Source of the DNA: an uncultured Clostridium sp.
Lineage (GTDB): Bacteria > Bacillota > Clostridia > TANB77 > CAG-508
Assembly: GCA_947388675.1 (NCBI GenBank)
Contig: CANDRW010000004.1
Span: 1,671 to 65,670, forward strand
Direction of reading: 5' to 3'
Length of the DNA stretch: 64,000 nucleotides
The notes beneath the pieces were generated by a model. The model was not told the DNA's origin and did not search any database. It saw nothing but the letters and a program-made list of their open reading frames with translations. The translations under genes were made by a program, and so were the position numbers. Of this stretch, positions 2,776-56,478 are shown piece after piece. Position 1 is the first letter of the stretch. Each line of letters starts with the position of its first letter.

Positions 2776-3522
2776 ATGAGAAGAAAAGTAATTGCAGGAA
2801 ATTGGAAAATGAATATGCTTCCTAATGAAGCAATTAGTTTTATTGAACAAATTACACCGTTAGTGAAAGACACAAAAAATGAAGTGATTCTTTGTGTTCC
2901 ATATACTGATTTATTCTATAGCTTACTAACTGCTCAAAATACAAATATCAAAATAGGTGCGCAAAATATGCATTGGGAAGAAAAAGGAGCATATACAGGA
3001 GAAATTTCAGGACAAATGCTAAAATCTATTGGAGTGGAATATGTTATTATAGGGCACTCTGAAAGAAGACAATATTTTGCAGAAACAGATGAAACTGTGA
3101 ACAAAAAAGTAAAAGCAGCTTTAGCAAATGACTTAAAACCAATCATCTGTGTAGGTGAAACCTTAGAGCAAAGAGAAAATGGAACAGCCCAAGAAGTTAT
3201 CACAAAACAAACGATGCTTGCATTAGAAGGATTAAGTAAAGAGCAAATAGCAAATGTTATTCTTGCTTATGAGCCAATTTGGGCAATAGGAACAGGAAAA
3301 ACAGCGACATCAGAAGATGCTAATAATAGTATTAAATGGGTTCGTAATAAAGTAGAAGAACTTTATGGAAGAGAAGTTGCAAATGAAATGATTATTCTTT
3401 ATGGTGGTAGTGTCAAAGCAGAAAATGCCAAAGAACTATTTTCCACTACAGATATTGATGGTGGATTAGTAGGTGGAGCAAGCTTAAAGGTAGACGAATT
3501 TAGCAAAATAGTGTTGGTTTAG
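2776..3522 (+). CDS. tpiA: triosephosphate isomerase
   Basis: AGNWKMN, IIGHSERR and AYEPIWAIGTG motifs; last 5 codons and the stop lie inside the REP element 3507-3613. Confidence 0.93.
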   Translation: MRRKVIAGNWKMNMLPNEAISFIEQITPLVKDTKNEVILCVPYTDLFYSLLTAQNTNIKIGAQNMHWEEKGAYTGEISGQMLKSIGVEYVIIGHSERRQYFAETDETVNKKVKAALANDLKPIICVGETLEQRENGTAQEVITKQTMLALEGLSKEQIANVILAYEPIWAIGTGKTATSEDANNSIKWVRNKVEELYGREVANEMIILYGGSVKAENAKELFSTTDIDGGLVGGASLKVDEFSKIVLV

Positions 3523-3613
3523 GGACGTATCTTAAACTGACATAAATAGAAGAAAGCATAATAATATAAATAAAATAAATTTATGTTGGTTTAAGGTACG
3601 TCCTTAAACTGAC
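3507..3613. repeat. REP-doublet (REPIN-like) element, alpha subfamily, copy 1
   Basis: Two palindromic units GTTGGTTTAGGGACGTATCTTAAACTGAC and GTTGGTTTAAGGTACGTCCTTAAACTGAC separated by an AT-rich spacer; 105/107 identical to 4321-4427. Confidence 0.85.
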
Positions 3614-3642
3614 ACTAATAAAAAAGGGGGCGAAAATTAAAT

Positions 3643-4293
3643 ATGGATAAGGAGAACAAAAAGATGGAAGAAAACACAGCAAATAAATTAGAAAAAGAAG
3701 AGAAAAAATATACTTATGCAGACTTACTAGAAATGGATGACGATAAACGTTATGAAATTATTGATGGAAAGTTATATTTAATGAGTAGTCCAAGAGTAAA
3801 ACATCAAGTAATTGCTGGAGAAATTTATGTACAGCTATCTTTGTTTTTAAGAGGAAAAAAATGCAAGCCTTTTATAGCGCCATTAGATGTAACTTTATCT
3901 AAAGAAAAACAGGATAACAAAATATATAATGTAGTACAACCAGATATATCAGTAGTTTGCAACAGAGAACAACTAAAAGATGAAAGAAAGATAACTGGAG
4001 CACCAAGCTTTGTAATTGAAATTTTATCACCTTCAACTAGTAGAAAAGATAAGTTAGAGAAGATGAATTTATATCAAAAATATGGAGTGAGAGAATATTG
4101 GATTCTTGAACCAGTAGATATGATAGTAACACCATATATTTTAGATGAAAAAGGCTTTTATAAAGCAGAAAAAAATTATGACTTAACAACAGAAGAAATA
4201 CCAGTCAATATTTTACAGGACTGCAAAATAGATTTAAGAGAATTTTTAAAAGAAAATAGTGAATGGATAAATAGTACAGCAGATGTTGAATGA
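3643..4293 (+). CDS. Uma2 (DUF820)-family putative endonuclease
   Basis: 216 aa; resembles Uma2 proteins from memory (YEIIDGKLYLMSSP...HQ...; PDISVV; FVIEILSPST; KMNLYQKYGVREYWIL). Alternative start at 3664. Confidence 0.7.
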   Translation: MDKENKKMEENTANKLEKEEKKYTYADLLEMDDDKRYEIIDGKLYLMSSPRVKHQVIAGEIYVQLSLFLRGKKCKPFIAPLDVTLSKEKQDNKIYNVVQPDISVVCNREQLKDERKITGAPSFVIEILSPSTSRKDKLEKMNLYQKYGVREYWILEPVDMIVTPYILDEKGFYKAEKNYDLTTEEIPVNILQDCKIDLREFLKENSEWINSTADVE

Positions 4294-4320
4294 AAAGAAA
4301 AGCAATAAGACAATCAGTAG

Positions 4321-4427
4321 AATAGTGTTAGTTTAGGGACGTATCTTAAACTGACATAAATAGAAGAAAGCATAATAATATAAATAAAATAAATTTATGT
4401 TGGTTTAAGGTACGTCCCTAAACTGAC
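4321..4427. repeat. REP-doublet (REPIN-like) element, alpha subfamily, copy 2
   Basis: Direct repeat of 3507-3613 with mismatches only at 4330 and 4418. Confidence 0.85.
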
Positions 4428-4443
4428 GCAAGGAGTAAAAATA

Positions 4444-9646: not shown

Positions 9647-9793
9647 AATTAATCGCTCCTTATTATTCAATTTATTCCACTTTATTATAACGTATGAATA
9701 ATTCTTTTTCAAGGGTTTTATCAATTTTTGCAGAATTTAACAAATTATGCTACAATAAAGTCGAAAAATATGGATAACGGAGTAAAAAATAGG

Positions 9794-10653: not shown

Positions 10654-11871
10654 GTGAGAAATTTGGAACGCAAAATTTTACATGTAGATGTTAATAGTGC
10701 TTTCCTATCATGGACAGCAGTTGATATGATAAAACATGGAGCAGAGATAGACATTAGAACTATCCCTGCTATTATTGGTGGAGATGAAGAAAAAAGAAAA
10801 GGAATTGTTCTTGCCAAAAGTATTCCAGCAAAAAAGTATGGAATACAAACAGCAGAGCCAATTTACTTTGCGAAACAGAAATGTCCAAACTTACAGATTT
10901 ATCAAAGTAATTTTAGAATATATAAGGAGTACTCGAATGCATTATATGACTTACTCCATGAATATACGGATAAAATTGAGAGATTTTCTATTGATGAATG
11001 CTTTTTAGATATTACAGATTTTATTCCAAAGGGAAAAACAGACTTACAAATTGCTTATGAAATTCATACAAGAGTAAAACTAGAACTTGGTTTTACAGTA
11101 AATATTGGGGTGGCGCAAAATAAAGTATTAGCCAAAATGGCATCTGATTTTGAAAAGCCAGATAAGGTTCATACTTTGTATGCAAATGAAATTTCAAGTA
11201 AGATATGGAAGTTACCAGTTTCAGAGTTATTAATGGTGGGAAAGAGGAGTTTGCCAAAATTAGAATTATTAGGGATCAAAACGATAGGAGAATTAGCACA
11301 TACGCCAAAGGAATTATTAGAAAATCAATTTGGAAAGTTTGGTAAAATGATTTGGGAATATGCCAATGGTATTGACCATTCGGAAGTCATTTCTATGCCA
11401 GAAGAACCAAAAAGTATCGGCAATTCTTCTACTTTACCACAAGATATGAAAGAATTAGAAAAGATAGAAGAAATTTTATTGGCTTTAACAGAGCAAACTT
11501 GCTATCGATTAAGAAAACATCAGTTATTAACTCATACAGTAGGGGTACAAATCAAAAACAAAGACTTTAAAATGTATTCACATCAAAAGAGTTTGTCGAC
11601 TGACACAGATAGCACGAAAATTATTTATGAAACAGCAAAACAGATTTTAAAAGAGATGTTTCAAGGAGAGCCTATTAGACTAATTGGAATAAAAGTAGAT
11701 AAATTAACTACAAAAGAAAGACAACAAATTTCTTTATTCGATACTCCTAGAAATGAGAAACAACAAAAATTAGATCAGACTTTAGACAAATTAAAGGAAA
11801 AATATGGTTATGATGCAGTGACTAGAGCTGGTAAAATGAACATTGATGAAATAATGGATTTTAAAGATTAA
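10654..11871 (+). CDS. dinB: Y-family DNA polymerase IV
   Basis: KILHVDVNSAFLS and SIDECFLD motifs plus little-finger region; start is GTG 10654 or TTG 10663. Confidence 0.85.
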   Translation: MRNLERKILHVDVNSAFLSWTAVDMIKHGAEIDIRTIPAIIGGDEEKRKGIVLAKSIPAKKYGIQTAEPIYFAKQKCPNLQIYQSNFRIYKEYSNALYDLLHEYTDKIERFSIDECFLDITDFIPKGKTDLQIAYEIHTRVKLELGFTVNIGVAQNKVLAKMASDFEKPDKVHTLYANEISSKIWKLPVSELLMVGKRSLPKLELLGIKTIGELAHTPKELLENQFGKFGKMIWEYANGIDHSEVISMPEEPKSIGNSSTLPQDMKELEKIEEILLALTEQTCYRLRKHQLLTHTVGVQIKNKDFKMYSHQKSLSTDTDSTKIIYETAKQILKEMFQGEPIRLIGIKVDKLTTKERQQISLFDTPRNEKQQKLDQTLDKLKEKYGYDAVTRAGKMNIDEIMDFKD

Positions 11872-13758: not shown

Positions 13759-14821
13759 TTTAAGTTCTATATATGAAGGGGTAAAAAATCCTATAGAAAA
13801 TGAAGAAGTAATGAGCAAATTGCTTACAGCATATGCTGAGAGTGCAAGACGTACCCGAATAGACCAAGGTTTATACTCGCAATTAGTACATATGGGAGAA
13901 AATCAAGATAATAGTGAAATAAATATAGAGGATAAAGAACGATTTTACATAAAAACATATAATAGATGGATTTCAGCAATATTGGATATGGAAATTAGCC
14001 AAGAAATGGCACAAAAACAGGAAGAATTTGGAAGAATAAAAAAATTTCAACAGTATTTAAAAAGTTTTGGATTAATAGAAAAAGCACAAGACGTTAAAAG
14101 GCTAACTGCTAGTTCGTGGTTTGAACATGAACTTTTATGGGAACAAAAAGGTATAGAATCTGTGAAGTGGGACTATATTAAGTCGTCTAGTATCCATATA
14201 GCAAAAGAAAAAGCTATGCATGTAAGTCACAGATTATATATAGGATGTCAAAATCAAGATATTTGGAATTTTATAGAAGGATTTGTAGAAAAATGTGAAA
14301 GTCTAAATATTCCATACTATCTCAAAACAGTTACAGGAAAAACAAAAAGAGATGAAAAAGTTGTTATTTATACAGATACAGAGCATTTAGCTCATTATAT
14401 ACAAATCCTTAGTGAAATCCAAAAAGAAGCTCCGCAATTAATAGCAAGATGTGCAACTCCGCCAATACTTACGGGCAAGGTTAGTAAATGGATAGGAATA
14501 GGAGATGAACCTTCTGAAAAATATAGAGGTGAACATTCATATAATTCTATGCGAGCGATGATTATTGAAGATGGAATAGAGCAAGCATTGCTACAAAGGT
14601 TACTTTTTTATCAAGATAAAGAAATTAGATACCAAGGCAAATTGGTAAATTTTAATATAGTATTTGCTAGTCAGGTTACAAAATGGATTTCAACAATGTT
14701 AGGAGGTTTAAGTGATAGTAAAAAAATGCAACTAGAAGGTCAATTACAAGAAAGACTTCGGAATAGGTGTAGAAAGACTATGGCAAGTGAGAGACATGAA
14801 AGATGCAAGAAATATGGATAA
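13751..14821 (+). CDS. hypothetical protein (possibly the 5' part of a frameshifted gene)
   Basis: ATG overlaps the upstream stop (ATGATTAG); no motif I can assign; overlaps the next ORF by 35 nt. Confidence 0.55.
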   Translation: MISLSSIYEGVKNPIENEEVMSKLLTAYAESARRTRIDQGLYSQLVHMGENQDNSEINIEDKERFYIKTYNRWISAILDMEISQEMAQKQEEFGRIKKFQQYLKSFGLIEKAQDVKRLTASSWFEHELLWEQKGIESVKWDYIKSSSIHIAKEKAMHVSHRLYIGCQNQDIWNFIEGFVEKCESLNIPYYLKTVTGKTKRDEKVVIYTDTEHLAHYIQILSEIQKEAPQLIARCATPPILTGKVSKWIGIGDEPSEKYRGEHSYNSMRAMIIEDGIEQALLQRLLFYQDKEIRYQGKLVNFNIVFASQVTKWISTMLGGLSDSKKMQLEGQLQERLRNRCRKTMASERHERCKKYG

Positions 14822-16364: not shown

Positions 16365-16439
16365 GTGTTAGTTAAGGGACGTATGTTTTTCTGACGAAAG
16401 CGAAGCTTTTGTTGGAAAAACGTATGTCCCTTAACTGAC
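16365..16439. repeat. REP-doublet (REPIN-like) element, alpha subfamily, copy 3
   Basis: GTGTTAGTTAAGGGACGTATGTTTTTCTGAC, spacer GAAAGCGAAGCTTTT, then inverted GTTGGAAAAACGTATGTCCCTTAACTGAC; starts at the base after the TAA stop. Confidence 0.8.
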
Positions 16440-16460
16440 GCGAACGAAATAGTGTATTAA

Positions 16461-18117: not shown

Positions 18118-18238
18118 TATAACATAAATATGATAAATTTTCTTGTTTTTCAAATGCCCGAGGTAGTCAGCAAGTTCAAAGAAGAAAGTCAACTCGGTAC
18201 CTTTCAAAACTGCGAAAACATATCATATTTACGTTATA
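18118..18238. repeat. long-hairpin intergenic element, family 3, copy a
   Basis: Outer stem TATAACATAAATATGATA / TATCATATTTACGTTATA; core ATTTTCTTGTTTTTCAAATGCCC.AGGTAGTC...GGTACCTTTCAAAACTGC shared with 56364-56478. Confidence 0.75.
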
Positions 18239-19796: not shown

Positions 19797-20684
19797 TTAT
19801 GGAAGAAGTTTAAATTTTTTCATTTCTTCTTCCAACCTAGAGCTATTAGCAATTGACATAGGTACAAGTGGTAATCTAGGCAAGCCCACTTGATATCCCA
19901 TTTTAGCCAGTGCAGCTTTTACAGGAATAGGATTTACTTCACTAAATAAAGAAGAAATAAGGGGAATGGATTTTATTTGAGAGTCTTTTGCTAAAGTAAA
20001 ATTACCACTTAAGTAGTCAAAGATCATATTGTGTACAAATTTAGGAGCAAGATTAGAAAGTACTGAAATAACGCCAATACCACCTAAAGATAAAATAGGG
20101 AGAGCTTGGTCATCATTACCAGAGTAAATCCATAAGTTATCACCACATAAGTTAGCAATTTTAGCCACTTGTGAAATATCGCCACTAGCTTCTTTGATAC
20201 CAACAATATTGGAAATTTTAGAAAGTTCCAAACAAGTTTCAGGCAAAATGTTTACACCAGTTCGACTTGGCACATTGTATAGAATAATAGGAAGAGTGAC
20301 ATTTTTAGCGATTTCAGAGTAATGGGCAACTAGACCTGCTTGTGTTGTTTTATTGTAATAAGGAGTGACTAATAATAAGCCATCTACACCAACACTTTCT
20401 GCATATTGAGAAAGTGAGATGGCTTCTTGTGTGTTGTTGCCACCTGTACCAGCGATAACAGGAATTCTTTTATGTACGGTTTGAACAGTAAATTCAATTA
20501 CCTTTTTCTTTTCCTCTAGGGACATTGTAGAGGACTCGCCAGTAGTGCCACAGATAATAACGCTATCAGCACCTTGCTCCACTTGAAATTCTAACAGTTT
20601 TTTTAATTCCTCAAAATTAACACCATCTTTTGTAAAAGGGGTAACCAAAGCAGTACCACAACCAATAAACAGACTTTTCTTCAA
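19797..20684 (-). CDS. dapA: 4-hydroxy-tetrahydrodipicolinate synthase
   Basis: GTTGES, YNVPSRTG and IVGIKEASGD (Schiff-base Lys) motifs. Confidence 0.92.
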   Translation of the reverse strand: MKKSLFIGCGTALVTPFTKDGVNFEELKKLLEFQVEQGADSVIICGTTGESSTMSLEEKKKVIEFTVQTVHKRIPVIAGTGGNNTQEAISLSQYAESVGVDGLLLVTPYYNKTTQAGLVAHYSEIAKNVTLPIILYNVPSRTGVNILPETCLELSKISNIVGIKEASGDISQVAKIANLCGDNLWIYSGNDDQALPILSLGGIGVISVLSNLAPKFVHNMIFDYLSGNFTLAKDSQIKSIPLISSLFSEVNPIPVKAALAKMGYQVGLPRLPLVPMSIANSSRLEEEMKKFKLLP

Positions 20685-27153: not shown

Positions 27154-28206
27154 ATGGACACACAAATGCTTACAACTAATAAAGGTGGAGAATTAATTAG
27201 TTTTAAAATAAATGGCGAAGAGAAGATTCATCAAGGAGAAAGTTGCATAGATGAAAATGGCAAAGTTTATTGGAAAAGACATTCACCAGTATTATTTCCA
27301 ATTGTAGGAAAATTAAAGAAAAACAAAACTTTAATTGGCGGAAGAACTTATGAATTGCCACAACATGGATTTGCCAGAGATTTAGAGTTTGAGCCAATCA
27401 CAAAATTAGATAATTTTCATTCCTATGTTTTAAGAAGCAATAAATATACATTGGCAAAGTATCCTTATGAATTTGAATTATATAACACATATCGTACAGA
27501 AGGAAATAAATTAACTACGATTTATAAAGTGGTTAATACTGGATTAATCAATTTACCATTTGGAATAGGAGGACATCCTGCTTTTAAGATTGACCAAGAA
27601 GAGTTAAAAAAGGGACATTACTATTTAGAATTTGACCAAGAAGAAGACAAAATTCACTTTCTTTATTTAATAGATGGCTTAATTGGTACAGAATATGCTA
27701 AAAATCCAATGGAGAATAAAAAGATTATTCCAATTGGTCCACATACATTTGATAATGATGCACTAATCATGAAAGGAATTACTTCTAACAAAATTAGTTT
27801 AAAAAAGAGAATAACAGAAGACACTGTTTTAACAATGGACTTTACAGATTTTCCATATTTAGCAATTTGGTCAAAACCAAATGCGCCATTTATCTGTATT
27901 GAACCATGGTTTTCAACAGCAGATACAGTAAAAGGTTCAGGAGTATTTACACAAAAGCGAGATCTTATTTCATTAAAGCCGAATGACTCGTTTGAATGCA
28001 AGTATACAGTGACATTTCAGCTAGCCGTAGGGAGTGGAACGACTGTACGGATAGTTGATGCAATCGAGCAAAGCGAGGTTGTAAACCTTATATTAGTGTC
28101 AGTTTTGGGGACGTTCTTTAAAAGTGACAAAAATGTCAGTTTAACCTACGTCCCTAAAGTGACAAAAGTGTCAGTTTTTGGGACACACTTTGATAGAATA
28201 GATTGA
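27154..28206 (+). CDS. aldose 1-epimerase family protein with REP-derived C-terminal extension
   Basis: WKRHSPVLFPIVG..LPQHGFAR..GGHPAF..EPW motifs; roughly the last 60 codons are read through REP-like repeats. Confidence 0.75.
   Translation: MDTQMLTTNKGGELISFKINGEEKIHQGESCIDENGKVYWKRHSPVLFPIVGKLKKNKTLIGGRTYELPQHGFARDLEFEPITKLDNFHSYVLRSNKYTLAKYPYEFELYNTYRTEGNKLTTIYKVVNTGLINLPFGIGGHPAFKIDQEELKKGHYYLEFDQEEDKIHFLYLIDGLIGTEYAKNPMENKKIIPIGPHTFDNDALIMKGITSNKISLKKRITEDTVLTMDFTDFPYLAIWSKPNAPFICIEPWFSTADTVKGSGVFTQKRDLISLKPNDSFECKYTVTFQLAVGSGTTVRIVDAIEQSEVVNLILVSVLGTFFKSDKNVSLTYVPKVTKVSVFGTHFDRID
28022..28186. repeat. composite REP cluster (alpha subfamily, copy 4)
   Basis: Three units: GTGTCAGTTTTGGGGACGTTC..AAGTGAC (28096-28128), TGTCAGTTTAACCTACGTCCCTAAAGTGAC (28134-28163), GTGTCAGTTTTTGGGACAC (28168-28186). 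Also a GAGCAAAGCGAGG core shared with the 45751 and 16365 elements. Confidence 0.75.
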
Positions 28207-29339: not shown

Positions 29340-29586
29340 CGAAAAACGAAGAAAAAGAGGAGTAAGTTCAAACTAGCTAGAAAGAGAAAAGAAGTGGATA
29401 CGTTGAGAGCTTCTTATAGAAAAGAGAACTGAAGGTAGCTTTGGAGTTGATAAGGTGAAATAAGAGTAAGCTTATCCGTGTAACTTGCGTTAAAAGGAAT
29501 TGAAGATTTGGCTAACTTATTAGCTAAAATTAAGGTGGTACCGTGAGAAATAATTACCTCGCCCTTATATAGGAGCGAGGTTTTTT
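29340..29586 (+). promoter_or_regulatory. T-box leader (tRNA-sensing riboswitch) with terminator
   Basis: AGTA and GAA S-turn halves around the specifier loop (29431-29437), AGAGA box, T-box AATTAAGGTGGTACCGTG (29528-29545), terminator CCTCGC..GCGAGG plus T6 (29557-29586). Confidence 0.85.
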
Positions 29587-29657
29587 GTGTATTTATGTAG
29601 TTAAACTAAAGTAAACTTTAGTTTAACTAATAAAATATGAAAAGGAGGAATTAAGTA

Positions 29658-29912
29658 ATGAAAGAAGTAAAAGAAGGGGAAATTTACAGACATTTTAAAG
29701 GTCCATTTTATTATGTCATTTGTGTAGGATTAGATTCAGAAACAAGAGAAAGAATGGTTGTGTATAGACATTTAGATGGTTCAAATATCATTTGTGTTAG
29801 ACCTGAGAAGATGTTTTTAGAGGAAATTCCAGAAAGGCCAGATAATGTTACAGGACAAAAGGTAAGATTTGAATTAATAGAAAATTTAAAAGATTATAAC
29901 TTGTCAGAGTAG
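29658..29912 (+). CDS. DUF1653-like protein
   Basis: GEIYRHFKGPFYYVI...SETRERMVVYRHL pattern; AGGAGG RBS. Confidence 0.7.
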   Translation: MKEVKEGEIYRHFKGPFYYVICVGLDSETRERMVVYRHLDGSNIICVRPEKMFLEEIPERPDNVTGQKVRFELIENLKDYNLSE

Positions 29913-29918
29913 GGATAA

Positions 29919-30044
29919 ATGTTGCACATGGGGACAGATGTCGCACAAACTATACATCTCACTATGTTCGATTGCATAAGTTATCTGTAACTCACTATGT
30001 TCGAACAGCTAACTTAACGTCCCCATCTGCGACATCTATGTGAC
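29919..30044. repeat. REPIN-like element, beta subfamily (GTCGCAC type), copy 1
   Basis: ATGTTGCACATGGGGACAGATGTCGCAC ... core ... AACGTCCCCATCTGCGAC; reverse complement of 45751-45866 with 23- and 27-nt identical blocks. Confidence 0.8.
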
Positions 30045-30062
30045 AAATTAAAGGAGGAAAAT

Positions 30063-33702: not shown

Positions 33703-33720
33703 AAAATAGTATTTTAATAG

Positions 33721-33902
33721 AATTAGGCTTATGATAGTATGATTATGCAGTAGCGAGTGGAGTAGCGTTAGTTACGACCCCGAATACAACTGAGTTATAG
33801 AATGCTATAATTCAGCTAAAAAATGACCTGTTTTTTAGCTGAATTATTGCATTCTATTAGGAAGTTGTACAACGTAATAATCATACTATCATAAGCCTAA
33901 TT
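33721..33902. repeat. 182-bp nested palindrome (singleton long-hairpin element)
   Basis: Perfect 26-bp outer stem AATTAGGCTTATGATAGTATGATTAT / ATAATCATACTATCATAAGCCTAATT; inner 15-bp stem AATTCAGCTAAAAAA / TTTTTTAGCTGAATT. Confidence 0.8.
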
Positions 33903-33931
33903 CATTTTAGAAGAATACTTTATATATCCTA

Positions 33932-36825: not shown

Positions 36826-37416
36826 TTATTTAGAAGATAAGTGTTCTAATTGTTTTGTATGTTTCTTTGAATTAATTTCTAGTGAAATAAGTCTATTAGA
36901 ATGGTCTTTTGTTGTTTCTTGTAAATCTTCAATATGTTTGTCATTTTTTTCGAAATGTTCTTGATGCATGGTATGTCCGTCAAATAGTACTGTTGATTTG
37001 TCAGAAAAATTAACTTCGAGAAGAATAAGAGTTTGATGCATACTATCAACTTTTTCTTCTAAAGCACAAAGTTTTTTCGTAAGCTTATCAATTCTCTCAG
37101 AATGGTCAAGTAATATATAAGTATGTTCAGTTACCATTTCTGATAGTTGATTTACTTTTTCTGATAGTTGAGTTACCGTTTCTGATAGTTGAGTTACCGT
37201 TTCTGATAGTTGAGTTACCGTTTCTGATAGTTGAGTTACCGTTTCTGATAGTTCAGCTATTTTTTTGGAATGTTCATTAAGTATTTGGGAGTGCTCATCT
37301 AAAGTCCTAGTATGTTCATCTAAAGTTTTTGTGTGTCCATCTAAGGTATGAACACAAACATTTAATAGTTTAGTGTGTTCATGTAGTATTTCTAGAATTT
37401 GGTCCTCTTTTGTCAT
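36826..37416 (-). CDS. His-rich heptad-repeat coiled-coil protein (hypothetical)
   Basis: HTKTLDE/HTRTLDE/HSQILNE heptads, then LSETVTQ x4 encoded by a perfect 21-bp tandem repeat. Confidence 0.6.
   Translation of the reverse strand: MTKEDQILEILHEHTKLLNVCVHTLDGHTKTLDEHTRTLDEHSQILNEHSKKIAELSETVTQLSETVTQLSETVTQLSETVTQLSEKVNQLSEMVTEHTYILLDHSERIDKLTKKLCALEEKVDSMHQTLILLEVNFSDKSTVLFDGHTMHQEHFEKNDKHIEDLQETTKDHSNRLISLEINSKKHTKQLEHLSSK
37140..37260. repeat. 21-bp tandem repeat (about 5.7 units, 4 perfect) inside a CDS
   Basis: CTGATAGTTGAGTTACCGTTT at 37161, 37182, 37203 and 37224, flanked by diverged units. Confidence 0.9.
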
Positions 37417-39233: not shown

Positions 39234-39250
39234 ATATCTATAGTTAATAC

Positions 39251-39422
39251 AATTTGAATATATCTATGATAGCGTTTGACCTTGTAGGTCGCAAACCACC
39301 AAATGTATAAGGAAATCAAAGATTTCCTGTACAAATTATATGATGGTTGCTCCAATCGCCCTACGCTTTGCTTCGGTTGGTCGCTACGCGGTCTTCACTT
39401 TTATCATAGATATATTCAAATT
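39251..39422. repeat. long-hairpin intergenic element, family 2, copy B
   Basis: Perfect 21-bp outer stem AATTTGAATATATCTATGATA / TATCATAGATATATTCAAATT; core shared with 50497-50637. Confidence 0.8.
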
Positions 39423-39442
39423 ATTAAAACAAGGAGATTTTA

Positions 39443-44900: not shown

Positions 44901-45792
44901 TGCTAAAAAAGATTTAATGAAAGAATTACAAGGAGTAGAAGAAAAAGAAGAAACAGAAATTACAAAATTAATTCAGGAAGAAGTGGAAAAACAAAAAGAT
45001 ACTAACCTTTCTGAATTAAGACAAACTTTAGAATGGAAATATGTTTATGAAGTAGATACAAAACTTCCAACCAAAACTTCTGTAACCAAGTTAAAACAAG
45101 AACAGGCAAACCAGCTTCCTTCTTTAGAAATCCAAGCAAATTGGGAGAAAGAAGAAACAAGCGATAATGAATTTGAGGCAAAAGAAATGCAGTATATACA
45201 AGTAAAACCGTTAGAAAGTGAAGAAAAAGCTAAACTAACCCCAGCACAAAAAGGAACTTTAGTCCACTTGTGTATTCAAAAATTAGATGAAAGAAAAGAA
45301 TATGAAATACAAGACATTCAAAATTTAGTTCAAGAATTAGTGCAAAAAGAAATCATTACAGAAATAGAGGCAAATGCAATAGACGTTAATTTAGTATATA
45401 GCTATACAAAATCAGAACTATTCCAAGAATTAAAAAAAGCAAAAGAAATCCACAAAGAGCAACCATTTTATATCAATATGCCAGCAAAAGAAATTTTTAG
45501 AGAAGCAAAGGAGGTAGGCTCTGAAAAAAATATTTTAGTACAAGGTATGATAGACTTATATTATATAGATGAGCAAGACCAATTACATTTAGTAGATTTC
45601 AAAACAGACTATGTGCCAAAAGGAAAAGAAAAACAAGTGGCTCAAAAATATCAAGTTCAAATGGATATATACCAAAAAGCATTGGAAGAAGCACTAGGCA
45701 AAGAAGTTACAAGTGCAAAGATTTGCTTAGCAAATTGTGAGTGGCAATGTGTCGCACTTGGGGACGTTAAGTTAGCTGTTCGAACGAAGTGA
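41980..45792 (+). CDS. addA: ATP-dependent helicase/nuclease subunit A
   Basis: UvrD-type AAAGSGKT, DEYQDSN, C-terminal RecB nuclease GMIDLYY..VDFKTD; last ~14 codons lie in a REP element. Confidence 0.9.
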   Translation: MGEVKWTTEQLQAIESKGSNILVAAAAGSGKTAVLVERIIHKIIDDKMDIDKLLVVTFTNAAAAEMRERILEAIYKELEQDPANEHLQKQITLLNKASICTIHSFCLDVIRNHFYEIDLPSNFRIAEPTEIDLLKQEVLEDLLEQKYIDQDSDFLELLETYTGYRGDEPLQELILSIYRFIQSSPFPEKWLQEKVEQFHVDASLDFGKTVLGKVILEEVQEELDGSLLKLKKVQEELEKFLECSKFYQAVSEDILQIEEVVGLTNSWNEVYQKIHQISFGKWPVDKKVSLDIKEEAKEIRDRVKKDIKEKVAGLMSHTSEEIAKDFEVLYPILQKLAKIILEFSESFKEKKREKNCIDFNDIEHLALKLLLDENGNKTQVSKKYEEKFEEIAIDEYQDSNLVQEAILTSISKGNNIFMVGDVKQSIYKFRQARPELFLQKYARYQTKEEKQEADDLKIQLFRNFRSRNNILDITNLVFEAIMSEKLGDIIYNENEYLNYGANYPEPEKSQSNVKENEWTDLTVKQNKSELEENYAGIAELNVIDMKEDDTITAVIGEEEEEENNDRIEDDVLEARFVAKRIKDLLQSEYQVYDRKKGYRQIEPKDIVILLRATSTLAPIYEKELSDYDLPVFSDSSTSYLESVEIETILSILKLINNPMQDIPLVVVLRSSIAQMTDNELITIRLTDRNCNFYEALIKTRISCEEPLKSKIEAILEKLEKWRAQSEYLPLDELIWQIYLDTGYYQYVGLLPNGEMRQANLKTLFEKAKQYETASFKGLFHFIQFIEKLKKQNGDLSSAKLIGESANVVRIMSIHKSKGLEFPVVFLSHTHKKFNLRDLNEVILMHQDLGLGPTLIDTAKKLKYTTTAKKAISLKIKQETLSEEERILYVALTRAKEKLIITGRSKDFQKALQEKEKNLAIYAESEDCKIDYKLMKKCSSYLDWLTYVYLFHQGKTVSLKGKQLELRDIITLKTFAKKDLMKELQGVEEKEETEITKLIQEEVEKQKDTNLSELRQTLEWKYVYEVDTKLPTKTSVTKLKQEQANQLPSLEIQANWEKEETSDNEFEAKEMQYIQVKPLESEEKAKLTPAQKGTLVHLCIQKLDERKEYEIQDIQNLVQELVQKEIITEIEANAIDVNLVYSYTKSELFQELKKAKEIHKEQPFYINMPAKEIFREAKEVGSEKNILVQGMIDLYYIDEQDQLHLVDFKTDYVPKGKEKQVAQKYQVQMDIYQKALEEALGKEVTSAKICLANCEWQCVALGDVKLAVRTK

Positions 45793-45866
45793 GTTACAGA
45801 TAACTTATGCGACGGAGCAAAGCGAAGTGTATAGTTAAGTGCGACATATGTCCCTCTGTACGACAT
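45751..45866. repeat. REPIN-like element, beta subfamily, copy 2
   Basis: GTCGCACTTGGGGACGTTAAG...AAGTGCGACATATGTCCCTCTGTACGACAT; inverted relative to 29919-30044. Confidence 0.8.
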
Positions 45867-46013
45867 TCAATTAAATGAATATTTGAAAATGAAATAACAG
45901 ATGTATTTATTTGATTAATGGGAATGTGTGAATTAATAGATATGGATATTGTAAAAGGACTAAAAGATAAAGAAAAAATCAATTTTAAAAGAGAATGGAA
46001 GTGAAAAGCTAAA

Positions 46014-46253
46014 ATGAGAATTGACAAATTTTTAAAAATGGCGACAGTCATTAAAAGAAGAACAGTTGCAAATGAAGCAGCAGATGGTGGCAGAATTTCC
46101 GCCAATGGAAAGGTTGTAAAACCAAGCTATGAAGTAAAAGTTGGTGATATGATAGAAATTAGATTTGGAGATAAGATTTCTAAATTTGAAGTTTTAAAAA
46201 TTCCGCAAAGACAAAGTGAACCGATAGAAACATTGATTAAAATGAAGGAATAA
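46014..46253 (+). CDS. S4-domain RNA-binding protein (Hsp15/YabO-like)
   Basis: MRIDKFLK...KRRTVANEAADGGRISANGKVVKPSYEVKVGD. Confidence 0.75.
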   Translation: MRIDKFLKMATVIKRRTVANEAADGGRISANGKVVKPSYEVKVGDMIEIRFGDKISKFEVLKIPQRQSEPIETLIKMKE

Positions 46254-46364
46254 GATGCTGTTAAAAGCAATGAAGTTAGTTTTTATCTAGAAATATAGTG
46301 GAAAAAATGATATAGTAGTAAAAATTAATAGGGGGCAAATATTCAAGTGAAAGGTAGGAGTATT

Positions 46365-46949
46365 ATGCCCCGAAATTGTAGAGAAAATCAAAAATCTTAT
46401 ACAGGAATTTATCATGTTATTCTTCGTAGTATCAATCAACAGGAGATATTCTATGACGATATAGATAGAAGAAAATTTTTAAAAGAAACAAAAGAGAAAT
46501 ATCATTATGATTTATATGCTTATGTTCTAATGCATAATCATGTTCATCTAGTGATAATGGATAAAGAAGATAAACTATCTAAAATTATTCAATCATTAGC
46601 AATTAGTTATGCACTGTATTTTAATAAAAAATATAATAGAATAGGTCATGTATTTTACAATCGATTTAAAAGTAAATATATAGAAAATTTACCATATTTA
46701 TTAAATGTTATTAGGTATATACATTTCAATCCAGAAAAAGCAGGGATATGTCAGGATTCAAAATCTTATTGGAGTAGTTATCATGAATATTTTCACTTTT
46801 CCAAATTAGTTGAAACTGATAATGTGCTAAAGATGGCTGGGATGAATAAAAAGGATTTTGAAATTTTTCACATAGAATATGAAAAAATAAAAGGCTATGA
46901 AAAATGTCGTACTAAGAGACAGATGTCGCACTTAACTAACGTCCCCTAG
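46365..46949 (+). CDS. HUH/Y1 transposase, IS200-like, REP-associated (RAYT-like)
   Basis: YHVILRS, HUH motif LMHNHVHLVI, GHVFYNRFKS, Tyr motif RYIHFNPEKAG; GGTAGGAG RBS; 3' end formed by a REP unit. Confidence 0.8.
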   Translation: MPRNCRENQKSYTGIYHVILRSINQQEIFYDDIDRRKFLKETKEKYHYDLYAYVLMHNHVHLVIMDKEDKLSKIIQSLAISYALYFNKKYNRIGHVFYNRFKSKYIENLPYLLNVIRYIHFNPEKAGICQDSKSYWSSYHEYFHFSKLVETDNVLKMAGMNKKDFEIFHIEYEKIKGYEKCRTKRQMSHLTNVP

Positions 46950-46955
46950 TGCGAC
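46904..46955. repeat. minimal REP unit, beta subfamily, copy 3
   Basis: ATGTCGTACTAAGAGACAGATGTCGCACTTAACTAACGTCCCCTAGTGCGAC: left and right ends of the 116-bp element joined without the core. Confidence 0.75.
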
Positions 46956-46971
46956 AAAAGGAGAGAAGAAA

Positions 46972-49900: not shown

Positions 49901-50484
49901 TTCAATTAAGGCAAATTAGTAGCGAAAATGAAATGAGCTTAGAAGAACAAGGAGAATTCAAAAGAGAGCAAACCTATGAAGAACATCAAACAGAATTTAA
50001 AGATGGACAAAATGTTACTTATGCTGGGATCATAACAAGTGTAAAAAAGAAATATACAAAGAACAATAAACTAATGGCATTTGTTACCATTGAAGATTTA
50101 TATGGTCCAACAGAATTTATTGTATTTGATAGTTGCTATCAAGCATGTAGCAGTGTACTAATAGAAGAAAATATTGTTATTGTAGAAGGAAGATTAAGTA
50201 TACGTGAAGATGAAGAGCCTAAGATTGTAGCAAAAACCATTACTCCTTTTACAGAAAATAAAGCGAAAGTATTTGAAATAGATATTACAGAATTAAATGA
50301 AGAGATGAGAAACAAATTAAAGGGAGCAATTTACTTCTTCCAAGGAGATAAGAATAATATTCAGTTACAAATTGTAAATGGAGAAAAGGTAGATAAAGCT
50401 GGTGGCATTTATATGACACCAGAGATTTTGAAACAATTTGAAGAACTAGTGGGAGAAGAAAAGGCGCAAATCAAGGAAGTTTAA
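46972..50484 (+). CDS. dnaE: DNA polymerase III alpha subunit (DnaE type)
   Basis: PHP domain HLHIHSEFSLLDG, PDFDVDF, FNKSHAAAYA; 1170 aa. Confidence 0.95.
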   Translation: MSNFVHLHIHSEFSLLDGANRIKDLPVRAKELGMDAMAITDHGAMFGAIDFYKACKANGVKPIIGCEVYVAPRSRTDKDPNLDARYSHLILLAKNNEGYKNLAKLVSLGYTEGFYYKPRIDHEVLEQYHEGLVCCSACLAGEVNQAILANDMEKAKEVALWHKSIFGEDYYLEIQHNGINEQVLANQKLIQLSRELDIPLVATNDAHYLKREDAYNHEVLLCIQTGKRMTDEDRMKFDTDELYVKSPEEMSAFFSNVPDAIENTVKIAEKCNVEFEFGHTILPNYDVPEEFKTHYDYLEKLTLDGMQERYGDNITEEMQERMKFELGVINKMGYVDYFLIVWDYIHYAKTHDIPVGPGRGSGAGSIVAYAIGITDIDPIAYGLLFERFLNPERISMPDFDVDFCYEKRDKVIEYVEQKYGKDHVSQIITFGTMSARMVIRDVARVLDLPYAEADKLAKMIPNELHITIDKALEKNRELKDLYESDESMKKLLDIAMALEGMPRQASTHACGVIIAREPVVNYVPLYARDGIVSTQYIMTTLEELGLLKMDFLGLRTLTVIQDTIDLVKKNQGIDVKFDEKMNDPKVYKLWQNGESVGIFQFESQGMTNFMKELKPDCLEDIIAGVSLYRPGPMDQIPRYIANKKDPEHAVYTHPSLKPILEVTYGCMVYQEQVMQIVRDLAGYSLGRADLVRRAMGKKKLEVMAKEREIFIHGQVDENGNVVVPGCVRNGIDERSADKIFDEMAEFAKYAFNKSHAAAYAVVSYRTAYLKAYYPAEFMAAMLNSFLGNQDKIPGYVEECKRLAIEILKPDINKSDTKFTVDKNQIRFGMGSIKNVGTDAVDNIVSEREKNGDYKDFSDFCERIKDLGVNKKCVESLIKSGSFDNLGQTRKTLIASFEKIIDMISDSGKKSFDGQVSMFDLGGSKEVEEMKYTYTTLPEYEPKDLLSMEKEMLGLYISGHPLENMREQIEAKTNINTFQLRQISSENEMSLEEQGEFKREQTYEEHQTEFKDGQNVTYAGIITSVKKKYTKNNKLMAFVTIEDLYGPTEFIVFDSCYQACSSVLIEENIVIVEGRLSIREDEEPKIVAKTITPFTENKAKVFEIDITELNEEMRNKLKGAIYFFQGDKNNIQLQIVNGEKVDKAGGIYMTPEILKQFEELVGEEKAQIKEV

Positions 50485-50496
50485 TATTTTAAATAA

Positions 50497-50637
50497 TTTT
50501 AATATATCTATAATATCGTTCGAACTTGCTGGTCGCAACCTTCCTATTTCAAAAAGGATGGTTGCTCCAATCGTCCTACGCTTACGCTTCGGTTGGTCGC
50601 TGCGCGTTCTTCACTTTCTATTATAGATATATTAAAA
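50497..50637. repeat. long-hairpin intergenic element, family 2, copy C
   Basis: Perfect 19-bp outer stem TTTTAATATATCTATAATA / TATTATAGATATATTAAAA; core GGTCGCAACC..GGTTGCTCCAATCGTCCTACGCTT..CGGTTGGTCGCTGCGCG..TTCACTTT. Confidence 0.8.
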
Positions 50638-50676
50638 CTAAAAGCAAAAAATAAATAACAAAGGGAGGCGAAAAAT

Positions 50677-56363: not shown

Positions 56364-56478
56364 AGCTATAATAGTGTTGATTTTCTTGTTTTTCAAATGC
56401 CCAAGGTAGTCGGCATGCGCAAAGAAGTAAGTCAACTTGGTACCTTTCAAAACTGCAAAAATGAATACTATTATAGCT
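56364..56478. repeat. long-hairpin intergenic element, family 3, copy b
   Basis: Outer stem AGCTATAATAGT / ACTATTATAGCT; core shared with 18118-18238. Confidence 0.75.

Follow-up and report, generated by a model that had tools for sequence, protein, structure and literature searches.

REP-associated tyrosine transposases (RAYTs; REP, repetitive extragenic palindrome) were defined by the inverted REPs that flank them and by RAYT-specific motifs (Nunvar 2010). Group 1 RAYTs are recorded in Clostridia, with flanking 16-mers that are weakly abundant (Bertels 2017, PMC5581495), and later work by Bertels and Rainey describes the group as single-copy, co-opted and not associated with REPINs (REP doublets forming hairpins). 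Group 1 equals subclass 2.1 of the TnpAREP proteins, which carries a C-terminal Bac_DnaA_C, HTH_23 or HTH_28 domain (HTH, helix-turn-helix) and whose genes have no REP-like sequences or secondary structure nearby; Y---NP is the tyrosine signature of class 2, and subclass 2.1 probably equals the TIRYTs of Di Nocera (Quentin 2018, PMC6006769). The inverted repeats of TIRYTs, whose equivalence to subclass 2.1 is discussed by Quentin, have GGGGWSAS (GGGG[AT][CG]A[CG]) in common and form moderately abundant families in a few species; the terms 'Firmicutes' and 'Clostridi' do not occur in that text, which gives no Firmicute example (Di Nocera 2013, PMC3733652). Here we analyze 64,000 nt of contig CANDRW010000004.1 (GCA_947388675.1, positions 1,671-65,670, forward strand) from an uncultured Clostridium sp., referred to as the window, which carries a RAYT-like gene and a set of palindromic repeat units. 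We conclude that this is most probably a fixed, C-terminally truncated RAYT of the HTH-bearing branch (Group 1 = 2.1, probably TIRYT), together with its cognate, non-autonomous hairpin repeats.

The locus has much in common with the TIRYT, subclass 2.1 and Group 1 systems. The RAYT-like Y1 protein belongs to a family longer than E. coli TnpAREP, intact orthologues appear to have a C-terminal HTH_23/HTH_28-like domain (Pfam matches are sub-threshold), copy number is low, and inverted repeats flank the gene at a roughly fixed distance. Some species also have moderately abundant repeat families composed of dimers and clusters. As in TIRYTs, the repeats carry a G-rich motif, here GGGGACGT, GGGGACGG or GGGGACAG. 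Unlike the published descriptions, the motif lies in a hairpin loop and the stems covary across at least 34 genomes, a REPIN-like population occurs in a Clostridia lineage, and the window copy is devoid of the HTH domain. The family is already described rather than new: assigned by its features, it fits RAYT Group 1 / subclass 2.1, and probably TIRYT. What appears to be new in the literature searched is the hairpin with its conserved loop and covarying stems, its near-universal occurrence around the family, and the REPIN-like population in gut Clostridia. An earlier note on this DNA, made from the sequence alone, held that the RAYT/REPIN architecture is characterized almost entirely in Proteobacteria, which is mostly so, except that Group 1 had already been recorded in Clostridia (Bertels 2017, PMC5581495).

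The translation of the transposase gene contains the motifs YHVILRS, LMHNHVHLVI, GHVFYNRFKS and RYIHFNPEKAG, all four of which the earlier note had read as Y1 transposase hallmarks. It matches Pfam Y1_Tnp at 43.7 bits (cut-off 23), with the HUH motif (HNHVH) and the catalytic tyrosine (RYIHFNP) on the Y1_Tnp core, and H59, H61 and Y118 do not vary among the aligned homologues. The stretch Y118-I-H-F-N122-P fits the class 2 signature, and NPEKAG fits NPx(K)xG, with E where the motif of Nunvar, NP(L/V)(R/K)xG, has L or V. The NCBIfam model REP_Tyr_transpos scores the window protein at 53.5 bits, versus 19.2 bits for the IS200 model (transpos_IS200), which is under the cut-off of 55 for that model. 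Relatives rank alike (47-61 versus 17-27 bits).

The AlphaFold2 (AF2) model of an intact orthologue (P0006; mean predicted local distance difference test score, pLDDT, 87.4) has a helical C-terminal domain. A fold search with this model returned as its top match chain A of 4ER8 (4ER8_A; E 1e-6, template modelling (TM) score 0.69, root mean square deviation (rmsd) 2.4 over 138 columns), which is E. coli TnpAREP bound to a REP hairpin and outranks the transposases of IS608, ISDra2 and IS200. Sequence searches of the PDB with P0006 (phmmer) and with a profile of A1 found no transposase, so the link to 4ER8 comes via the fold search only. On the NCBIfam scores and the structural match, the window protein is RAYT-like and not IS200, as the earlier note had proposed. 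The gene is preceded by a leader that aligns at the DNA level with orthologue, paralogue and distant-relative loci (L109, L015, L009 and L101) and includes an AGGGGGCAAA block and TGATATAGT, a putative promoter.

The family is large: clustering at 50% identity leaves 5,447 representatives at E<=1e-30. Plasmids seldom carry it (20 of 72,556 records), and phages hardly ever do (1 of 50,697). A genome-collection scan for RAYT relatives was evaluated for the best 80 loci listed, one per genome and with 37-54% identity to the query. These relatives come from Clostridia, Bacilli, Negativicutes and Syntrophomonas, and also from Prevotella, Collinsella and Acidobacteriota.

The earlier note had taken many identical gene copies with fixed flanks as the mark of an ordinary insertion sequence (IS). 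The exact window protein was found in one context, on eight metagenome contigs that each have the order S4-domain gene, RAYT, dnaE, and one of these (L001) matches the window at 100% identity over 8.8 kb. In a sister species (dnaE 90% identical), an intact 262-aa orthologue, 85% identical, lies at the same place between S4 and dnaE. The sister-species metagenome-assembled genome (MAG) GCA_948900285.1 additionally has a second paralogue between a GH15 gene and radA, which is 72% identical to the window protein and has inverted units on both sides. In a closer relative (L153, dnaE 93% identical), S4 is directly followed by dnaE with neither RAYT nor repeat between them (L153 399-720). Comparison of the sister species, the window and L153 therefore places intact, truncated and absent RAYT states all within one clade. 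The RAYT locus is fixed and vertically inherited, yet dispensable. The single domesticated transposase of the earlier note holds insofar as the window has one; this is a truncated copy, and given the second paralogue in the sister-species MAG, 'single' applies to the window only. The region upstream of S4 in L153 is also unlike the window.

Nearly all homologues are 255-270 aa long, with ~260 aa typical, whereas the window copy has 194. In the alignment, residues 1-180 follow the homologues, after which the downstream repeat unit encodes the final 14 residues and the stop codon; this identifies the window gene as a C-terminally truncated copy. The earlier note had rightly seen that this unit encodes the end of the transposase, with the stop codon and 14 codons rather than the ~15 it gave. 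The 79 C-terminal orthologue residues that are missing include the HTH domain. In orthologues, the lost stretch holds the HTH-like segment QLARILG.NERTIYRA, and residues 220-258 give sub-threshold Pfam matches to HTH_23 (20.1 bits, cut-off 24.6), HTH_8 and Xre-like domains; precomputed PF13384 matches exist on the homologues P0010 and P0069. The deletion ends at the exact left edge of the downstream repeat (GAAAAA/TGTCG, with the slash marking the edge). In intact relatives, a repeat unit sits 0-15 nt beyond the RAYT stop codon, and in two relatives (L102, L103) a unit is fused to the RAYT C-terminus.

The 180 surviving codons contain no stop and no frameshift. The ratio of nonsynonymous to synonymous substitution rates (dN/dS) between the window gene and intact orthologues is 0.06-0.08, no higher than between intact copies: it is 0.077 for the window versus L101 and 0.066 for L101 versus L102, which are both intact. 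Over the comparisons it ranges from 0.04 to 0.12, at dS of 0.6-1.5. Relaxed selection on the truncated gene was considered, and the dN/dS comparison gave no sign of it.

The repeat units occupy seven loci with ~13-15 hairpin heads (Table 1). A head has a short stem, which is GTCAGTT in alpha units and GTCGCAC in beta units, and then a conserved loop of the GGGGACGT(T/A)TCT type. Most heads are arranged as in REPINs, in inverted doublets that form long hairpins. The motif GGGAC[AG]T occurs 17 times in the window versus ~4 expected, and GTCGCAC-N-GGGGACG is found at 45751(+) and 46940-46955(-); 100 shuffles give an expectation of 0. Folded as single strands, the alpha doublets reach -26 to -27 kcal/mol (z -10 to -12); folding is weaker for the alpha triple at 28096-28190 (z -4.3) and the beta elements (z -3.2 to -4.7). 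A unit in the relative L108 folds at -47.7 kcal/mol (z -12). An Rfam scan of the window and seven relative loci returned a T-box and tRNAs only, and no described RNA family explains the hairpins.

Table 1 Coordinates of the RAYT gene, its leader and the seven repeat loci in the window
Feature	Position	Strand	Remarks
RAYT-like Y1/HUH transposase gene, C-terminally truncated	46365-46949	+	194 aa
Conserved leader of the RAYT gene	46273-46364	+	promoter-like TGATATAGT and AGGGGGCAAA block
Short beta unit (mini-REPIN)	46904-46955		GTCGTAC-TAAGAGACAGAT-GTCGCAC-TTAACTAACGTCCCC-TAGTGCGAC
Long beta element across the addA stop codon	45749-45868		short unit with 64-nt insertion in the hairpin loop
Second long beta element	29901-30047		reverse complement of 45749-45868; between 84-aa ORF and valS
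Alpha REPIN, inverted doublet	3502-3618		contains the tpiA stop codon
Alpha REPIN	4316-4432		96% identical to the 3502-3618 copy over 112 nt
Alpha REPIN	16365-16444		begins right after the stop of a GlmU-like gene; site also occupied in L125, L117
Alpha triple, heads +, -, +	28096-28190		read as C-terminal tail of the aldose-1-epimerase ORF

Most of what the earlier note said about the repeats stands, with corrections in detail. Its count of seven loci in 64 kb is unchanged, as an nhmmer profile of the units found no further locus within the window, and over-representation is strong both in the window and in the metagenome assembly ERZ827512 described below. The element it placed at 45751-45866 does span the stop of the addA open reading frame (ORF) at 45792. 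The copy at 29919-30044 is the reverse complement of this element (29948-30034 against 45750-45836, 87 nt, 86%), with both identical blocks present. The alpha doublets that it listed at 3507, 4321, 16365 and 28022 are real, but alpha and beta, which have the GGGGACGT loop in common, belong to a single class of hairpin with variant stems and are not separate families. At the last of these positions, 28022-28095 is a fragment like another miniature inverted-repeat transposable element (MITE) family, and the alpha triple lies directly behind it. The core GAGCAAAGCGA[AG]G is exact at 28066 and 45815, and at 16395 only CGAAAGCGAAG is present.

Four window ORFs end in repeat DNA: tpiA (3522), aldose epimerase (28206), addA (45792) and RAYT (46949). 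The aldose epimerase gains ~60 extra residues in this way. Many units end directly at the AAAGGAG ribosome-binding site of the following gene; the unit at 46904-46955, whose GGGGACGT head is on the minus strand, abuts that of dnaE. In L153, a unit after dnaE supplies the dnaE stop codon (4217-4240). The fusion of units to coding sequence (tpiA, aldose epimerase, addA, RAYT) resembles Rickettsia palindromic elements and intragenic REPs. Unlike Rickettsia palindromic elements, the units here form extreme 3' ends rather than internal in-frame insertions, and the repeat family is unrelated. A Uma2-family gene (putative restriction endonuclease, 3643-4293) lies between tpiA and gpmI and is flanked by two direct REPIN copies. 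This arrangement suggests a cassette that was inserted at a REPIN or was duplicated together with one.

Related genomes show the units changing in place. At the 3' ends of addA and RAYT, the sister species has GTCAGTT/AACTGAC stems where the window has GTCGCAC/GTGCGAC; the loops and outer boundaries are the same at both of these RAYT-side sites, and the 64-nt loop insertion of the 116-nt element is absent from the sister species. The orthologues of the unit at 46904-46955 carry alpha stems in L009-L013. In L101, the closest relative with an intact gene (88% identical), the stems are of the beta type and the hairpin is flipped. Upstream of valS, the long beta element of the window interrupts what is left of an alpha unit, and L132 has this alpha unit intact. 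In the window lineage, three sites have gone from alpha to beta units. Presence/absence differences between relatives, for which the earlier note had proposed to look, are seen at the addA end, which is empty in ERZ827512, and in L153, which has neither RAYT nor repeat between S4 and dnaE. The sites thus vary between relatives by presence and absence, nesting, flipping and exchange of subfamilies. Several short contigs end inside units, as expected since the units are repeats. In the window region 29340-30062, a T-box leader (29340-29569) precedes valS, with an 84-aa ORF (29658-29912) and the nested REPIN lying between the two; in L108 the order is T-box, REPIN, valS without the ORF, and in L132 the stop codon of the ORF is read from the repeat.

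A larger population of the same kind was found in a single metagenome scan that used the strict alpha pattern and returned 25 loci, all from one related assembly, ERZ827512. These contigs sum to ~1.18 Mb at ~9-10x coverage and carry at least 46 units by the strict pattern, or 57 by the profile, spread over 33 sites. The master 31-mer, TGTCAGTTTGGGGACGTTTCTTTAACTGACA, is present in 14 copies and a variant that differs from it by one base in nine. The units have unique outer flanks, most are inverted doublets of 100-140 nt, and their mean pairwise identity is 0.93. A master sequence with mutant classes is therefore seen in ERZ827512; the window copies are few and diverged. ERZ827512 also encodes a RAYT homologue, 59% identical to P0006, that is flanked by units of the same kind. 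It shares with the window the occupied site after the GlmU-like gene, and at a further orthologous site it has a REPIN where the window has another palindromic element. The flanks of 46 units are A/T-rich, with frequent TAA and reverse-complemented ribosome-binding sites, and show no fixed tetranucleotide as insertion target.

The hairpin extends across the protein family. We surveyed the flanks of the 78 distant RAYT loci among the best 80 listed and in 61 of them found, adjoining the RAYT, a hairpin whose stem varies and whose loop carries GGGAC[GA] (GGGGACGGTTCT type). It lies upstream on the plus strand in 45 loci, downstream on the minus strand in 49 and on both sides in 33, and the upstream copy is usually 30-100 nt ahead of the start codon. 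Tight inverted flanks are found in these 33 loci, in the paralogue loci L015-L020 and in L109. The stems are diverse, with 52 distinct 6-nt stems among 60 flanking hairpins. When sites are not filtered for pairing, 1.18 Mb contains 179 copies of GGGACGGTTC versus 1.5 expected, and 76 of the 179 sites pair at six or more of seven positions in one fixed register, compared with 0-26 in slid registers. In an ungapped alignment from 34 genomes, the stems reach a covariation score of 0.694. Shuffles give 0.245, with none of 500 attaining the observed score, and slid partners give no more than 0.279.

The loop varies across the family between GGGGACGGTTCT, GGGACAGGTCC, GGGGACGTTTCT and GGGGACGGGGTT. 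In 46 of 61 loci, the loop class is also that of the nearest protein neighbour, where our own calculation gives ~20 expected by chance. Mean protein identity differs little within and between loop classes (0.413 versus 0.400, reached by 91 of 2000 permutations), so that loop class tracks protein relatedness strongly by the nearest-neighbour measure only. GGGGACAG, an exact fit to GGGGWSAS, is present in 15 of the 61 hairpin loci, and most others have GGGGACGG or GGGGACGT, which are one position off. A covariance model built from the distant hairpins alone ranks window units as its top four hits and as eight of its top nine. The profile of the window repeats does not detect the distant loci L021-L100, and the link between window and distant hairpins therefore needed this structure-aware model. 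A literature search on GGGACGGTTC and its variants returned unrelated primer sequences only.

Some distant genomes carry many copies. In Clostridiales bacterium UBA3678 (L024), the GGGGACGGTTCT hairpin is arranged in tandem 21-nt arrays on both sides of the RAYT and at further sites within 10 kb (9658-9754, 10899-11004, 14057-14151 and 19858-19931). L089, L079 and L090 have 8-15 motif copies per 20 kb.

Gene and hairpin are linked across many genomes, the flanking hairpins are inverted, and the repeats are dispersed with unique flanks. The system resembles the proteobacterial RAYT/REPIN pairs (E. coli TnpAREP with REP/BIME, where BIME is bacterial interspersed mosaic element, and Pseudomonas Group 2/3) in its single-copy, vertically inherited HUH/Tyr gene with inverted flanking repeats, in inverted doublets that form long hairpins at extragenic and gene-end sites, in the master sequence with mutant classes (in ERZ827512) and in its best structural match, 4ER8. 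It differs in the conserved bases, which lie in the loop and not in a 5' GTAG tag, in the extra HTH domain of the protein family, in the missed NCBIfam equivalog cut-off, in belonging to another phylum, and in lower copy numbers, which extrapolate to the tens or low hundreds.

The most likely mechanism, by analogy with TnpAREP and IS608, is that the HUH/Tyr enzyme binds the folded hairpin on single-stranded DNA. It may read the conserved loop, cut at the hairpin foot next to TGTC and rejoin the DNA, and such cutting and rejoining could excise, insert or exchange units in trans. Catalysis and the cleavage site are inferred from this analogy, and so would be any activity of the HTH-less window copy. 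We lean slightly towards a more general view, in which Group 1/2.1 RAYTs as a rule have a cognate single-strand hairpin whose stem is free and whose loop is of a conserved GGGGACGGTTCT type. Recognition would then read the loop, unlike the GTAG-guide mode of E. coli TnpAREP, and in some Firmicute lineages the pair of gene and hairpin would have grown into true REPIN populations, in which one subfamily can take the place of another at a given site.

Several observations weigh against a fixed RAYT with cognate, mobilizable repeats. The scores of the window protein (53.5 bits) and its relatives (47-61) do not reach the 80-bit equivalog cut-off of NF047646. The repeats lack the 5' GTAG tag of canonical REPs and have GGGGACGT in the loop as their conserved bases. 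The palindromes that, according to the earlier note, bracket the gene are indeed inverted (heads at 45751(+) and 46955(-)), but the left element (45749-45868) is separated from the RAYT by the host S4-domain gene; because that gene is present with or without the RAYT, the 45751 element is not clearly the RAYT's own left end. The hairpins of the covariation test were chosen by pairing score, a choice for which the motif-only register test controls, and genome-wide counts of the RAYT gene and repeats in the window organism are extrapolated. The HTH domain is gone from the window gene and appears to be kept by almost all of the 5,447 cluster representatives, an estimate drawn from the 150 best listed, most of which match over their full length of ~250 aa. 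The window units are heterogeneous, with a mean pairwise identity of 0.58 versus 0.93 in ERZ827512, which makes current activity in the window genome doubtful, and mobility of the family is a proposal from sequence comparison.

The loss of the HTH domain could mean that the window RAYT is dead or dying, with its repeats immobile fossils kept as structural or regulatory DNA and any mobilization due to a paralogue elsewhere. Besides the truncation, the divergence of the window units relative to those of a relative with an intact RAYT (0.58 versus 0.93), the complete loss of the gene in the closer relative L153 and the second paralogue in the sister species agree with such a relic. The 180 remaining codons without stop or frameshift do not, nor does a dN/dS as low as between intact copies (0.077 versus 0.066), and the 96% identity of the REPINs around the Uma2 gene suggests a recent event; beta units also replaced alpha units at three sites in the window lineage. 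The TnpAREP chain in 4ER8 has 165 residues, and only the catalytic core of the P0006 model aligns to it. E. coli TnpAREP is not known to have an HTH domain, so that an enzyme consisting of the core alone is conceivable. We regard a relic as possible but on balance doubtful.

The other two explanations fare worse. If gene and flanking hairpins formed one autonomous element, an ordinary IS200/IS605-type insertion sequence, the Y1_Tnp domain, the hairpins adjoining the gene and the presence or absence of the gene between close relatives would follow, and IS608 and ISDra2 share with the window protein the Y1 HUH fold and the single-stranded hairpin recognition presumed here. Such an element is multi-copy, with co-oriented ends, whereas the gene occurs in one context only, with synteny kept across species at ~90% dnaE identity; its flanking hairpins are inverted, no TnpB gene accompanies it, the IS200 model stays at 19.2 bits against a cut-off of 55, and the repeats far outnumber the gene. 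Each of the 80 best listed loci comes from a different genome and no genome contributes two. This explanation is close to refuted. Alternatively, the palindromes could be double-stranded operators for the C-terminal HTH (autoregulation), or host terminators or mRNA-stabilizing elements, with a regulatory rather than transpositional link to the gene. Upstream copies 30-100 nt before the start codon in many genomes and units at gene 3' ends just before ribosome-binding sites would suit this. In a dimeric HTH operator, however, the reverse of the observed pattern is expected: here the stems vary freely and the asymmetric centre is conserved, as is typical of a folded single strand. At the RNA level, the oppositely oriented downstream copy would present the motif as its complement. 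The hairpins are not followed by a T-run, and dozens of copies with unique flanks are found at a distance from the gene. Free stems, a conserved asymmetric centre and opposite orientation around the gene therefore favour a folded DNA strand, and we consider a purely regulatory link unlikely, although the units may have secondary effects at the RNA level. The core RAYT/REPIN reading of the earlier note survives the tests it had set for its own refutation and is largely right but incomplete.

The window contains further repeats. A second MITE-like family with terminal inverted repeats AATATATCTATGATA... has copies at 39240-39430 and 50484-50640, one of them directly after the dnaE stop codon. 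This family has GTTCGAAC and CGCTTTGC blocks in common with the 64-nt loop insert of the long beta elements and with 28022-28095. A third palindromic family has two copies that are 86% identical (18118-18238 and 56364-56478), and L125 has a REPIN at the place of the first. Seven 21-nt units are arranged in tandem (37104-37292) inside an ORF on the minus strand (36826-37416), and an intergenic region contains nested inverted repeats (33720-33903), with 27-nt perfect arms around a pair of 39-nt arms.

REPIN-RAYT systems are a model for long-lived, vertically inherited intragenomic replicators and nearly all work on them concerns Proteobacteria and Group 2/3 RAYTs. The case described here ties a Firmicute example to the largest but least understood branch of RAYTs, with its 5,447 cluster representatives, and suggests a candidate recognition element for it, a hairpin with a conserved GGGGACG(G/T)TTCT-type loop. 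The intact (L009, L101), truncated (window) and absent (L153) states form a natural series that bears on the role of the HTH domain and on the decay of repeats after RAYT loss. In gut Clostridia, the repeats rewrite the ends of genes and break metagenome assemblies.

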